Shown one piece after another: positions 21,593-36,889 of a stretch of DNA of 64,000 nt (positions within the stretch are counted from its first letter, which is position 1; each line of letters opens with the position of its first letter). The notes under the pieces were generated by a model, which worked only from the letters and a program-made list of their open reading frames with translations, made no database searches and was not told the DNA's origin. This DNA is from Escherichia phage vB_EcoM_G17. Position numbers and translations under genes: made by a program. The stretch lies in the sequence record MK327931.1; one strand, 5' to 3'.

Positions 21593-22143
21593 AATAGTTC
21601 CTTATACATATGATGTACTTTACAAATCTCATTATAGTATTTCATATCAATGTCATTTGTATTAAAAACGGAAACAGACAATACTGCTAACTTATCAATT
21701 AAGTAATTATTATCGGCGTACTGTTTTAACTTATTGAACATATAGATGCATTTTATACTTAATTCATCATGCAACACACTGTTCTGAAAAATATTCTCTT
21801 CAGTATTAGGAGATAAGTAATCTTCAATTATATACGATAAACTACTATCGCAATCTTTATAGATTGAAATTGATGGATGTAATGTGTCATACATTACACT
21901 AAACAGATCACCGTCATATGTGGATATTAAACTATTATTGGAAACAGTAGGATGATAATATTTCAGTACTGAAAACTTTGAACAATCAGTGCAGTAAAAA
22001 TGATCCATCCCTCGACGACTTTCGTATGAGAATAGTTTACTTGTATATTCAATCCCTTTGGTGCGACGGATTGTTTCATGCATTTCTGCACATTGCATTA
22101 AAATTACCATACGTTCAAACGCAAGATCTAAATCATCGTACAT
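21583..22143 (-). CDS. family A paralog; function unknown
   Basis: core TEENIFQNSVLHD. Confidence 0.75.
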   Translation of the reverse strand: MYDDLDLAFERMVILMQCAEMHETIRRTKGIEYTSKLFSYESRRGMDHFYCTDCSKFSVLKYYHPTVSNNSLISTYDGDLFSVMYDTLHPSISIYKDCDSSLSYIIEDYLSPNTEENIFQNSVLHDELSIKCIYMFNKLKQYADNNYLIDKLAVLSVSVFNTNDIDMKYYNEICKVHHMYKELLCQ

Positions 22144-22324
22144 AACGGATATCCTTCTTCAACGAATTAATATATTCCAAAATAACTTGTTCCTGATATT
22201 GGGTTCCCAAGTACATCAGTACTTTCAACTCTTTGAATTCAGTACTATATGAGTCTGTTTGCATCATTCTAGTAGAATATATATTGAATAGTTTAGCAAT
22301 ATCATCTTGGTCTATTATTTTCAT
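22133..22324 (-). CDS. family B small paralog embedded in the family A array
   Basis: core YLGTQYQEQVILEYINSL. Confidence 0.7.
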   Translation of the reverse strand: MKIIDQDDIAKLFNIYSTRMMQTDSYSTEFKELKVLMYLGTQYQEQVILEYINSLKKDIRYVR

Positions 22325-22520
22325 TAACCCTCTTCTGTATTAGTTCCTGTAAGTGCTGAATATAACCCTTCATTGCAACATCCTGTTTGTTAGAGCCAAC
22401 GAAGAACAAGAGCTTAAAGTCATGGTAATCCATTTTTGGTTTAGTAGTGAACCATATGTCCCACACTGCACTCACAGTTCTCATGTATTCAATTCGATTA
22501 AATGTTTTTGAATACTTCAT
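22302..22520 (-). CDS. family B small paralog embedded in the family A array
   Basis: core FVGSNKQDVAMKGYIQHL. Confidence 0.65.
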   Translation of the reverse strand: MKYSKTFNRIEYMRTVSAVWDIWFTTKPKMDYHDFKLLFFVGSNKQDVAMKGYIQHLQELIQKRVNENNRPR

Positions 22521-23034
22521 CGATGTTCATTGCCAATAAGTTAATATACAAATTACTGTTAAATGCTATCTGCAATTCCATATAGAACTGAATGATTGCA
22601 TAGTCAGGGTCAGTACACGATAGTTGAAAACACTGTTCGTCGAATGCATTGTAATTGTACTTAGGGATGTGAATTTCACGCTTCAAATCAGGTTGCCCCC
22701 ACTTCATCGCGTACACACCAATGTTATTGTTCTTTTTCCTTTTCTTAAATGTTAATTGTTGAATATTTCCTGCGTTATCCAGGAAAATAGAATTATTCGA
22801 CACAGGTGCACCAATAGAAAACAATGATGTATCAATTACGTGTTTCTCACGTACATCACACTTCTGAAATGCACCTGTACCCTGTAATACACGATGAAAA
22901 TTGTACTTCTCATTAACAACAGTACTAGGATCAATTAAACCAGTACTGCATTTTTTGAGTACTGGTACGATGATACGAATCTTTTTTGATAAATCTTGTA
23001 ATGCATCAAAGTCATTGATGTTAACTTTCATCAC
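22498..23034 (-). CDS. family A paralog; function unknown
   Basis: core FDEQCFQLSCTDP. Confidence 0.7.
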   Translation of the reverse strand: MMKVNINDFDALQDLSKKIRIIVPVLKKCSTGLIDPSTVVNEKYNFHRVLQGTGAFQKCDVREKHVIDTSLFSIGAPVSNNSIFLDNAGNIQQLTFKKRKKNNNIGVYAMKWGQPDLKREIHIPKYNYNAFDEQCFQLSCTDPDYAIIQFYMELQIAFNSNLYINLLAMNIDEVFKNI

Positions 23035-23480
23035 TCAAATGTGGCCTCTTCAGTAGTAACAAAATTGATTAGTGTATCCAGTTCAGCAGTGTCAAGATAA
23101 AATACATCCAGTACTGATTTCTGATATATTACACTGAATGTGCATAGATTGTCAAGCGTTCCTTGTTCATAAACAGTACTACCCTGGAAGTACCCTTCTT
23201 CAGTACTCAGGGATAAAATGTCTGAAATTTTAAAAGATTCTTCAGTCGCATGTCTTTCTATATTAACTAAATGTCCGTTTCGGTTCAATGAAATATAATC
23301 GTATGCTAACTCAATTAGACTATAATTATCCGCATTAGTGTCAAATAAAGCGACAATTTTTCGTCTCAATCTCTCATCGTGATCATGGTTTTCATCAGCT
23401 AAGTATTCAGGATTTTCTTTGAAGAACTGAACAACTTTTAGAATATCATTTGCTTTCTTGATTGCACTTTCGTAACTCAT
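23031..23480 (-). CDS. family A paralog; function unknown
   Basis: core STEEGYFQGSTVYE. Confidence 0.75.
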   Translation of the reverse strand: MSYESAIKKANDILKVVQFFKENPEYLADENHDHDERLRRKIVALFDTNADNYSLIELAYDYISLNRNGHLVNIERHATEESFKISDILSLSTEEGYFQGSTVYEQGTLDNLCTFSVIYQKSVLDVFYLDTAELDTLINFVTTEEATFE

Positions 23481-23785
23481 AATAATTCAACCACTCCATC
23501 TCTAAAGTACATATAACTACCACCATTGGATACCTTGAATTCTATTGTCCCCAATAATATATTATATTTTTTTATTTCACATGTAGTACTGGTAGTGTAA
23601 GGCTCACCATCTCCTAAGTACATTGACATATGACATAGAACTTTTCTACCTGCATATTTCTCTTCAAACGATTGTTCAAAACTATGCATAATTTGATTTA
23701 AAGCTGAAATGTAATTAATAAAGTCAGGTATTTCTGTCAATGAATTATAAACCGTACAAAGTGAATCAAATTCATTTTTAGTCAT
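23477..23785 (-). CDS. hypothetical protein (no FQ core)
   Basis: 102-aa ORF, 4-nt overlap with the upstream gene. Confidence 0.65.
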   Translation of the reverse strand: MTKNEFDSLCTVYNSLTEIPDFINYISALNQIMHSFEQSFEEKYAGRKVLCHMSMYLGDGEPYTTSTTCEIKKYNILLGTIEFKVSNGGSYMYFRDGVVELL

Positions 23786-24099
23786 TATATTTCTATCTCA
23801 ATGTAATCCTGTGTGATTAAGTAATCCCAATGATACTTCACCTGCTTTTGTAATTCAATTAACGTAAAGAAGTTGATCGATTTATCCCATACGAGCGATT
23901 CCTGGAAAATAAATGATTCATGTTCATCGTAATAATCACACTCTAAAAAATCAGGTATATATTCACTATCGTGAATGTATTCAACAAACGAACTAGCTTG
24001 GCATTTCTTTACTACTAGTAATAATGAATTATCATGATCAAACAGATACAATAAACTAATTTCACCAGGGACGTACTGAACACTGAATAAGTTTTTCAT
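23785..24099 (-). CDS. family A paralog (short form); function unknown
   Basis: core HESFIFQESLVWD. Confidence 0.75.
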   Translation of the reverse strand: MKNLFSVQYVPGEISLLYLFDHDNSLLLVVKKCQASSFVEYIHDSEYIPDFLECDYYDEHESFIFQESLVWDKSINFFTLIELQKQVKYHWDYLITQDYIEIEI

Positions 24100-35578: not shown

Positions 35579-35879
35579 TGATTCTCCCTGATGTACCTTG
35601 TATTAGCTTATCATACATATCGAGCATCACTTTTTGAATACTAATTAGTACTGGCATCGTGCAAATATCAATGTCGTATACTAAGCTGTACTGGAATAAT
35701 TCATCTTCCTGCATTTGTACTAAATTAGGTAAAGGATAATTGTCTGCCTCTTCATCCTGGTACTTGAAATGCATAACACCATCCTTTTTGTACAAAAGAA
35801 TGTCAATATCACCTAACTCATCAGCATAACCAAAAATACATATACTCGATGTTTTTGCTATATTAAATTTCATCTCCAC
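35553..35879 (-). CDS. family A paralog (short form) embedded among family B genes
   Basis: core QEDELFQYSLVYD. Confidence 0.75.
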   Translation of the reverse strand: MEMKFNIAKTSSICIFGYADELGDIDILLYKKDGVMHFKYQDEEADNYPLPNLVQMQEDELFQYSLVYDIDICTMPVLISIQKVMLDMYDKLIQGTSGRIIEIDIQDN

Positions 35880-36115
35880 CTCTCTCCGTCAGCACAAGAG
35901 TACTGGTACGTTGTCGTTAGGGTAGGGACCATGTTTGTAATGGGCATATTATTAACAATAACGGTAACAGGCATAAGAATCGTCTCTACTCTACTCTGTC
36001 CTGTCCTTGTACAATTCATCTTCTGCATTTCATCTGAATCCATGAAATACAATACAAATGGTGCAATCCCAAGAACAATACACAAGACGATAAGGAAATT
36101 TAAAAAATTTAACAT
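35870..36115 (-). CDS. small membrane protein
   Basis: N-term hydrophobic segment MLNFLNFLIVLCIVLGIAPFVLYF; own promoter upstream. Confidence 0.6.
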   Translation of the reverse strand: MLNFLNFLIVLCIVLGIAPFVLYFMDSDEMQKMNCTRTGQSRVETILMPVTVIVNNMPITNMVPTLTTTYQYSCADGERWR

Positions 36116-36144
36116 AATTTTTACCCTATGATTAACGTTAGTGT

Positions 36145-36173
36145 ACTATATCAGTAATGAAAAGTACTGTCAA
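36145..36173 (-). promoter_or_regulatory. sigma70-like promoter
   Basis: -35 TTGACA (36168-73), 17-nt spacer, -10 TATAGT (36145-50). Confidence 0.65.
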
Positions 36174-36174
36174 G

Positions 36175-36579
36175 CTAGTATTGCACTGTTCTAATGAAAG
36201 TACCTTTACTCATGGATTTAAGCTTATGAACCTCTTCCTGCATACCCTTAATTAACCCTAAAGGTATAGGTAAATCATGTACTAAGCTGTACTGAAAGTA
36301 TTCTTCTTCAGATAAAGTACTAACATCTGGAACGCCAATTTTAGTTATATAATCTTGATGTGTTGACCAATAAATTATATCTTCAGTACTATTGTACTCC
36401 CCATATACTGAACAATATTGATGAATATCTTTCCTGTACCCTTGAGCAATAAAGAACTTATCTAATGCATTACCAGCATTAATAGAATTTACTTCGATTG
36501 TCACAGTACTTGAGCTTGTATAACTCTTAATATTATCAGTACTCTTAATACTCAACGATGTGTTCTTCATAATCACCAT
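36175..36579 (-). CDS. family A paralog (short form)
   Basis: core SEEEYFQYSLVHD. Confidence 0.75.
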   Translation of the reverse strand: MVIMKNTSLSIKSTDNIKSYTSSSTVTIEVNSINAGNALDKFFIAQGYRKDIHQYCSVYGEYNSTEDIIYWSTHQDYITKIGVPDVSTLSEEEYFQYSLVHDLPIPLGLIKGMQEEVHKLKSMSKGTFIRTVQY

Positions 36580-36889
36580 TAGGCTCCTGTTTAGATTCTT
36601 TCATTAGTACTATCATCTTATGTACTAATGGCATAGGGAACTCTAAATCCCATACTAATGATTCCTGGAAGTATTCCTCTGGTGATAAAGTACTTAAATC
36701 TTTAATATCAACGTGCTTGTATATTTTATTTTCGTAATTAACAAATGATATATATAAATCACTAACATAAGAATCATAGGTAATTGTGAATGGCTTACCC
36801 TTGTAATCCATTACATCTCTACATAGACTACTTTTGATATATGTATGTTCAAATGATTTATATACCTTGAGTTGTATATTAGTTTTCAT
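36545..36889 (-). CDS. family A paralog (short form)
   Basis: core SPEEYFQESLVWD. Confidence 0.75.
   Translation of the reverse strand: MKTNIQLKVYKSFEHTYIKSSLCRDVMDYKGKPFTITYDSYVSDLYISFVNYENKIYKHVDIKDLSTLSPEEYFQESLVWDLEFPMPLVHKMIVLMKESKQEPNGDYEEHIVEY

Follow-up and report, generated by a model that had tools for sequence, protein, structure and literature searches.

Do two families of small paralogous genes that are embedded in each other's arrays function as a pair, or do they merely share a neighbourhood? The question is raised by a 64,000-nt stretch of Escherichia phage vB_EcoM_G17 (MK327931.1), hereafter the window, to which all positions refer unless another genome is named. It carries two tandem arrays of short genes, designated family A and family B, each of which holds a few members of the other, and a preliminary description made from the sequence had taken this reciprocal embedding as a hint of functional pairing. 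The interleaved layout does not demonstrate a working pair. We consider it probable, though far from settled, that two sets of early host-interaction genes expanded independently of each other within a common, plastic operon region.

Positions 30000-40000 of the window match Escherichia phage Sharanji (OR545507.1; Asteriusvirus; 350,079 bp) at 100% identity and PBECO4, phAPEC6 and other jumbo coliphages at 94-99%; the gene counts and gene order given below for Sharanji are those of the window genes. Adding 27,555 to a position of record OR545507.1 yields the window position, which places the GenBank origin at 27556. An artificial join at this origin was considered and rejected, the window being collinear with phage 121Q across 27556. 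Nearly all plausible genes of the window lie on the minus strand, so that transcription runs from high to low coordinates. Every gene of the A/B region carries the GenBank label "hypothetical protein", and a tRNA scan of the window found none. Families A and B jointly account for about 70 genes; this is roughly 12% of the annotated genes, which number 593, and some 10% of the phage DNA, with the arrays occupying some 35 kb of a probable early region.

Definition of the two gene families

Iterated hidden Markov model (HMM) searches built from the open reading frames (ORFs) of the window assigned 37 members to family A, or 39 with a broader profile, all on the minus strand between 8191 and 36889 and with a few marginal extras, while in BLASTP clustering of the minus-strand ORFs the family fell into several clusters, linked to one another, of proteins 100-200 aa long. 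The aligned columns average only 12% identity, yet F-Q, within the motif EE-x-[FY]-F-Q-x-S-[TL]-[VI], is invariant in 40 of 40 aligned sequences. The proteins are mostly acidic (median isoelectric point, pI, 5.0), and the short forms of 103-137 aa are devoid of the N-terminal part. The AlphaFold2 model of gene 24096-24548 (pLDDT 91, pTM 0.85) predicts an alpha/beta protein with an N-terminal helix, a seven-strand sheet and then the helices that bear the F-Q motif. An exhaustive profile search yielded 177 cluster representatives of family A; among the best 150 of these, 85 are less than 50% identical to any paralogue of Sharanji or A4, RaK2/K64-1 gp116 and EJP2 gp029 being included in this divergent set, and a homologue search with an alignment of divergent A sequences returned only 3 proteins. 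Matches in PHROGs (phrog_12674, phrog_13866, phrog_9317 and others) are all of "unknown function". Besides the B pair at 22133-22520, a few genes outside the family interrupt the main array. It also contains an 85-nt repeat of 96% identity (27057-27141 and 27586-27670, family D19), with the GenBank origin between the two copies, and a truncated A fragment (Table 1).

Family B comprises 32 genes by iterated HMM, all on the minus strand and encoding 52-96 aa, and BLASTP clustering gathers it into one cluster of 32 small proteins. Its motif is [LF]-G-T-N-[YF]-Q-E, with invariant Q and L, and its proteins are neutral to basic (median pI 8.0). All 32 members match phrog_4148, likewise of "unknown function". 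A four-helix domain is predicted by the AlphaFold2 model of gene 37123-37344 (pLDDT 96), and a homologue search with the B alignment returned Escherichia coli and Asteriusvirus sequences only. Overall, the alignments of both families are 12-27% identical, each with one near-invariant short motif.

Profile comparison with hhalign gave a probability of 0.2%, indicating no relationship between A and B, and the possibility that B is a truncated C-terminal piece of A, which would give the two a common origin, was rejected on that value. Scans of both families against Pfam and PADLOC gave scattered single-member chance matches only, sequence-profile searches of the PDB gave no significant match (best E-values 0.68 and 0.14), and a PDB fold search matched neither family to a solved fold. 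The SUKH immunity superfamily was also considered for A and set aside, there being no significant sequence or fold match. Judged by these profile comparisons, A and B are two unrelated and uncharacterised multigene families.

Two islands in strongly segregated arrays

With other genes ignored, the order of A and B genes falls into 6 runs, against 36.2 +/- 4.1 expected at random (z = -7.3); the "reciprocal interleaving" is two small islands in strongly segregated families. All five genes named in the preliminary description fall by HMM into the families to which they had been assigned, with E-values that include self-training (Table 1). As independent support, four of the five were also recovered in BLASTP clusters (the two B genes plus 36175-36579 and 36545-36889), and 35553-35879 falls in no cluster; the invariant F-Q of A and the phrog_4148 match of all B members provide further support of this kind.

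The two B genes reported within the A array were confirmed by HMM at 22133-22324 and 22302-22520. The former overlaps 21583-22143 by 11 nt and has a 100% identical orthologue at the same position in 121Q, and gp432c of phAPEC6 agrees with it in length and position. The latter overlaps each of its two neighbours by 23 nt and has orthologues in 121Q (100%) and in A4 (44%, at the syntenic BB island). The BB island of phAPEC6 consists of gp432c and gp433c, of matching lengths.

In the second island, three short A genes and a membrane-protein gene (35553-36889) do lie among B genes, as had been described, and divide the B pair 35124-35578 from the main B block 36879-43265. They are not among the first B genes, however, the pair 35124-35578 being last in the order of transcription, with 35124-35390 as the final gene of the B block. 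Three non-family genes (34414-35158) separate this pair from the main A array. Orthologues in 121Q are 90% identical for 35124-35390 (75% in A4), 86% for 35360-35578, which is annotated there, 87% for 35553-35879 (36% in A4), 86% for the membrane-protein gene 35870-36115 and 82% for 36545-36889 (79% in A4), and for 36175-36579 121Q offers no reciprocal best hit. Between 36545-36889 and the membrane-protein gene lies a slot (36116-36579) that is filled by an A gene in Sharanji and by a B gene in A4 (16091-16321) and is empty in 121Q (about 11113-11204). The island genes share one strand, as claimed; the further claim that all of them overlap their neighbours stands for every junction (10-35 nt) but one, a 59-nt gap at 36116-36174.

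A few annotation details concern these arrays. Two B genes have apparently been missed in GenBank: 35360-35578, in the gap between gp019 and gp020, and 38170-38400 (B HMM E 1.8e-19), in the gap between gp029 and gp030. In the A gene 27668-28231, the longest ORF has an N-terminal extension of about 60 aa, hydrophobic and of low complexity, which is probably untranslated; the GenBank start lies further in (gp001, record positions 113-574).

Table 1 Features of the A/B region in the window, and order of A and B genes in five genomes (transcription direction; "a", A gene of less than 140 aa)
Feature	Position	Strand	Evidence or detail
B gene, 63 aa, inside A array	22133..22324	-	B HMM E 7.6e-18
B gene, 72 aa, inside A array, tandem with 22133-22324	22302..22520	-	B HMM E 1.4e-18
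Three non-family genes (67, 53, 130 aa), gp016-gp018, hypothetical	34414..35158	-	no A/B HMM match
B gene, 88 aa	35124..35390	-	B HMM E 2.2e-18
B gene, 72 aa, TTG start after GGGAG	35360..35578	-	B HMM E 1.7e-20
A short form, 108 aa, motif EDELFQYSLVYD	35553..35879	-	A HMM E 3.2e-14
Small membrane-protein gene, 81 aa	35870..36115	-	one N-terminal hydrophobic helix, Kyte-Doolittle maximum 2.77 over 19 aa
A short form, 134 aa, variable slot	36175..36579	-	A HMM E 7.5e-20
A short form, 114 aa	36545..36889	-	A HMM E 5.4e-22
Main family A array	8191..34417	-	about 36 genes, 103-207 aa, HMM iteration; EE-x-[FY]-F-Q-x-S
Main family B block	36879..43265	-	28 genes, 52-96 aa, HMM; one marginal member 40905-41165
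Truncated A fragment, 54 aa	27507..27671	-	re-uses 5' end of 26783-27139
Promoter-like TTGACA-17-TATAGT, TG before -10 box	36145..36173	-	11/12 matches; sole intergenic gap of island
Promoter-like TTGACT-16-TAAAAT	43266..43293	-	10/12 matches, pattern only; directly upstream of first B gene, 219-nt gap
Terminator-like hairpin 32208-32229, then promoter-like TTGACA-17-TATCAT 32163-32191	32163..32229	-	52-nt gap in A array
Perfect-consensus promoter-like site with TG	19365..19394	-	12/12 matches; 59-nt gap in A array
Gene order, Sharanji			B10. B18 a a. a B B ... A a A ... A. B B A ...; A 39, B 32
Gene order, 121Q			B8. B13 a. a B B ... A. B B A ...; A 38, B 25
Gene order, A4 (divergent)			B6. 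B13 a B. a a B B ... A. B B ...; A 36, B 24
Gene order, RaK2 (Alcyoneusvirus)			BBAA.......B.......A...aaA.a..BB.......a.BBB.....BBB..aaBAaA.AAAAAAA; A 25, B 12
Gene order, contig L006 (RaK2-like metagenomic, partial)			BBBBB.............BBBBA...aaABAa...AAAAAAAA; A 14, B 10

Distribution of the two families among related phages

The preliminary description had proposed to check whether A and B always co-occur in related phages, and they do not. Phage EJP2 (OQ411014.1) carries 22 A genes in its positions 1-40000, and an HMM scan of 140 kb of its genome (1-90000 and 299186-349185) found no B, the best B E-values, 0.074 (299186-349185) and 0.028 (40001-90000), belonging to spurious ORFs. Salmonella phage Munch has 18 A genes and, by HMM, no B in its positions 1-50000. 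A tblastn search with the B consensus, at E up to 1, gave no match in the A-bearing phages EJP2, Munch, 7t3, SE_PL, PHA46 and fENko-Kae01, its matches being confined to 35 Asteriusvirus and 10 Klebsiella records. The B search can be regarded as sensitive enough because, in a control, a profile made solely from Sharanji B genes detected 12-13 B genes in RaK2 and 10 in the metagenomic contig L006, with E-values of 1e-15 to 1e-7. The flanking conserved proteins place EJP2 and Munch about as far from Sharanji as RaK2. EJP2 is filed under Asteriusvirus; its flanking conserved proteins are only 23-65% identical to those of Sharanji, similar to Munch and RaK2, and on account of this low identity and of the absence of detected B genes its genus assignment looks doubtful.

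The arrangement that an obligate pair would display, one-to-one adjacency or equal numbers, was not found either: the families form two near-homogeneous blocks of unequal counts, and B copy number varies (32, 25, 24, 12) while that of A holds at 39, 38 and 36 in Asteriusvirus genomes. In its obligate form the suggested pairing is not supported, with A found and B undetected in EJP2 and Munch and no alternation of the two. Half of what the preliminary description named as a refutation, relatives with one family only and no loss of fitness, is at hand in these A-only phages. What survives of the pairing is that B was seen only alongside A, the reverse case never having been encountered. A one-sided dependence of B on A is possible.

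Age of the arrangement and growth of the arrays

Both islands are present at the same positions in 121Q, in phAPEC6 and in the divergent A4, and a mixed A/B order is also seen in Klebsiella phage RaK2. The embedded genes have positional orthologues of 82-100% identity in 121Q and 36-79% in A4, with the exception of 36175-36579 (none in 121Q), and are about 30-38% identical to their paralogues in the same genome, reaching 55% over short stretches. Since the orthologues are far closer than the same-genome paralogues, the island arrangement is old and did not arise from ongoing exchange. By this comparison, the two islands are inherited features of Asteriusvirus, and the mixed order extends to the sister genus too. 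The distal A genes are roughly collinear among RaK2, L006 and Sharanji, and the B gene embedded in L006 best matches 22133-22324, with flanking A genes that best match 23031-23480.

All DNA repeats in 8000-44000 stay within one family, and many are spaced by exactly one gene length: 215-270 nt in B (D2, D5, D7, D16) and 437-484 nt in A (D1, 24129-26112). Going by these repeats, each family grew locally by single-gene tandem duplication. Many paralogues, head-to-tail repeats, copy numbers that differ across genomes and maintained coding were all found, as is characteristic of multigene families. The preliminary description had also held that the arrays recombine with each other's flanks. No evidence for this was found: no repeat in 8000-44000 links an A flank to a B flank, and the layout is old.

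Divergence from 121Q is mosaic across 20000-44000, with values of synonymous divergence (dS) that vary among adjacent genes from 0 to over 1, and the gene at 33568-33879 is 54% identical to its counterpart in 121Q and 83% to that in A4. This mosaic suggests frequent allele exchange between co-circulating phages. The pooled ratio of nonsynonymous to synonymous divergence (dN/dS) between Sharanji and 121Q is the same in A and in B, 0.31, and in the flanking genes it is 0.15-0.17. By this measure, the A and B genes are under purifying selection, being functional and less constrained than their flanks, and individual paralogues are kept as orthologues in RaK2 and L006.

Favoured reading and alternative explanations

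In the reading that we favour, single genes would have duplicated in tandem within one leftward-transcribed, probably early, non-structural region of RaK2-like jumbo phages. Family A would be ancestral to these phages and B would have arisen, or survived, in one sub-lineage and in the same operon region, the interleaving being the product of one plastic region in which single-gene cassettes duplicate, vanish and swap with no gene-for-gene partnership. The products may be diversified host-interaction proteins that act in host takeover or counter-defence, each paralogue being kept for a distinct target, with the short invariant motif of each family as a shared core or contact and the variable remainder as the source of specificity. 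Several points weigh against this reading. The proposed function is without a match in Pfam, PADLOC, PDB sequences or PDB folds, and the total number of promoter-like matches does not exceed that of shuffled controls, operon structure and timing being based on pattern scans. In EJP2 a further 209 kb and in Munch a further 300 kb were checked for B by consensus tblastn only. In no case was B detected without A, in three lineages it sits within an A array or next to one, and the acidic A (pI 5.0) and neutral-basic B (pI 8.0) are compatible with mutual binding. The association of B with A is not what pure accident predicts, yet shared ancestry of one arrangement would explain it.

The same association is one ground for supposing that A and B cooperate, with B supplying small partners, adaptors or regulators, or each family one half of a system, at least in Asteriusvirus and Alcyoneusvirus, and that the interleaving was selected for shared transcripts. 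We regard this as unlikely. All B-containing records have A, the same 35 Asteriusvirus records are matched by an A gene and a B gene, and RaK2-like phages carry both families. In Sharanji, A4, RaK2 and contig L006, B genes stand within A arrays or next to them, and one B-in-A neighbourhood looks conserved between L006 and Sharanji. The gene overlaps suggest shared A-B transcripts, and complementary charge and one nearly invariant motif in each otherwise divergent family likewise speak for cooperation. Such cooperation is nevertheless hard to reconcile with A arrays that have no B, in EJP2 and Munch and, by tblastn, in the four further phages named above, or with the A-like proteins that the fold search gives in three phages for which tblastn returned no B match, namely GAP32, Serratia phage BF and Yersinia phage fHe-Yen9-04. 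The two near-homogeneous blocks, with neither alternation nor one-to-one numbers, and a B number that shifts while A barely does, speak against it as well, and one inherited ancestral arrangement can account for the co-location. A more specific proposal, to which we assign little probability, is a combinatorial binary system restricted to Asteriusvirus and Alcyoneusvirus, in which the basic B would dock via LGT-x-x-Q-E on EE-x-F-Q-x-S of the acidic A. If this were true, a few dozen genes of each family would give many complexes against variable host factors or defence systems, and the A fold would be a new phage effector scaffold.

Two further explanations appear very improbable. According to one, the islands stem from recent or ongoing recombination between the arrays through each other's flanks. 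The region is indeed mosaic between phage lineages, as the dS values against 121Q and the gene at 33568-33879 illustrate, the content of one slot differs among phages (an A gene, a B gene or nothing), and the 85-nt repeat is a recent duplication. However, no DNA repeat joins A and B flanks, both islands occupy the same place in 121Q, phAPEC6 and A4 with orthologues much closer than paralogues, and the mosaicism represents allele exchange between phages, not exchange between the arrays. According to the other, which we find if anything even harder to credit, the arrays are functionless filler, either duplicated DNA that fills a large headful capsid or over-called ORFs. Tandem duplication has been proposed by Hua et al. 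to have enlarged jumbo genomes to suit larger capsids (PMC5646251), and no function or known domain was found for either family. Filler would not be expected to show a dN/dS of about 0.3, individual paralogues kept as orthologues across genera, confident AlphaFold2 models for both families, or tight packing with overlapping reading frames and ribosome-binding sites.

Expression and genomic context

Co-transcription of the arrays, as put forward in the preliminary description, is plausible from the common strand, the overlaps and the restriction of promoter-like sites to gaps, and stands as a pattern-based prediction. Good sigma-70-like sites and terminator-like hairpins within the arrays are confined to rare gaps, 15491-15552 among them (Table 1), and the -35 box of the site at 19365-19394 overlaps the stop codon of 19391-19975. 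Shine-Dalgarno-like sequences precede most of the named genes, and stop and start codons overlap. Host-type sigma-70 promoters may drive a few long operons, each with A and B genes, which would place members of both families on shared transcripts.

Upstream of the B block, seven perfect TTGACA-16/17-TATAAT sites were observed on the minus strand between 45089 and 51565, each in the gap upstream of a small gene; this promoter-like run sits just upstream of the block. Three identical 36-nt elements, AAAGGGATTGACTCCGGTCAGTCCCTTTGCTATTAT, occur on the minus strand at 44782-44817, 47534-47569 and 50803-50838, with none expected by chance. Each is a 12-bp stem-loop with a -35-like TTGACT in the stem, followed by TATTAT. 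They resemble the promoter-stem-loop (PeSL) cassettes that are tied to gene shuffling in T4-type phages. Two more pairs of small paralogues were seen in this upstream, probably early region (49086-49490 with 61268-61570, and 49577-49900 with 55695-56018). A kinase gene lies upstream of the arrays at 47581-48165 (PMC11895373), and in phage CBB an analogous region of short ORFs with RpoD-like promoters has been proposed to be the early region (PMC5259590).

Sharanji has a terminal repeat of 20,668 bp (20.7 kb) (PMC11895373). If the record starts at the PhageTerm terminus, this repeat would correspond to window positions 27556-48223, ending 1 nt from the start of ORF 47581-48222, and so placed it would take in about 13 A genes along with 30 of the 32 B genes.

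The virion proteome of phAPEC6 contains nothing between gp347 and gp549, a range which covers its A/B arrays, whose ends as sampled are gp431c-gp439c and gp484c-gp489c. By orthology with phAPEC6, the A and B products would be absent from the virion. A separate minus-strand array was noticed in EJP2 at 318571-335572, with about 15 genes of roughly 1.1 kb, several of them annotated as RCC1/BNR-repeat or "GTPase regulator". Its phAPEC6 counterparts ("DNA condensation proteins" gp003-gp010, gp549 and gp551) are virion proteins, and this RCC1-type array may be the "array of closely related genes" of the phAPEC6 paper.

Comparison with known systems and significance

In 2017, Hua et al. noted tandem gene arrays in the jumbo phages 121Q and G (PMC5646251). 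The 121Q array, with over 30 similar genes, is very probably family A or B itself, because 121Q has 38 A genes and 25 B genes whose order agrees with that of Sharanji. Bacillus phage G contains a zinc-ribbon expansion of roughly 35 copies (Iyer et al. 2021, PMC7824862). As in these two cases, the arrays studied here consist of dozens of small head-to-tail paralogues in a jumbo phage, attributed to tandem duplication, although the zinc-ribbon family of phage G is unrelated to A or B. Each of the two papers gives its array one sentence, with no family definition, second family, interleaving, cross-phage order or function. About 10% of the gene products in RaK2 are paralogous according to the RaK2 paper; neither family is defined or given a function in the RaK2, Hua, Sharanji, phAPEC6, UE-S1 and review papers.

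Two unrelated and interspersed paralogue families in a variable region near the genome end, with copy numbers that vary between isolates, are also a feature of the multigene families (MGFs) of African swine fever virus (ASFV). MGF360 and MGF505/530 are non-structural, act on the host in interferon-related roles, and are often gained or lost together. The likeness has its bounds, as ASFV is a eukaryotic virus with different folds and as family A is widespread without B. Closer to the present phages stand the hyperplastic regions of T4-type phages, with their PeSL cassette shuffling, and the host-takeover modules that SPO1 and Twort-like phages carry in their terminal repeats. With these the A/B region has in common dense small, probably early genes downstream of predicted strong host-type promoters and the gain and loss of cassettes among close relatives; the three identical stem-loop-plus-promoter elements just upstream of the arrays recall the T4-type PeSLs, and the possible location in a long terminal repeat, a position inferred for the arrays, recalls the SPO1 and Twort-like modules. 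Those regions, however, hold mostly unrelated single-copy genes, whereas here two families provide about 70. Toxin-antitoxin and effector-immunity systems share with the arrays small, adjacent, overlapping genes on one strand and a complementary charge like that of A and B, but the arrays differ from them in having neither alternating pairs nor one-to-one stoichiometry, in that A is common without B, and in giving no PADLOC or Pfam match.

Overall, the A/B arrays are a new, uncharacterised case of viral multigene families that tandem duplication has enlarged within a plastic, probably early region. The confidently predicted fold of family A resembles no solved structure, and the family spans RaK2-like jumbo phages of enterobacteria, several of which are under consideration for therapy. 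Gene-order interleaving alone is a poor ground for functional pairing when both families share a duplication-prone operon region. With the families and their motifs defined, the orthologues mapped and A-only relatives identified in nature, a clean test by array deletion or transplant becomes possible, with host range and defence evasion as the outcomes.

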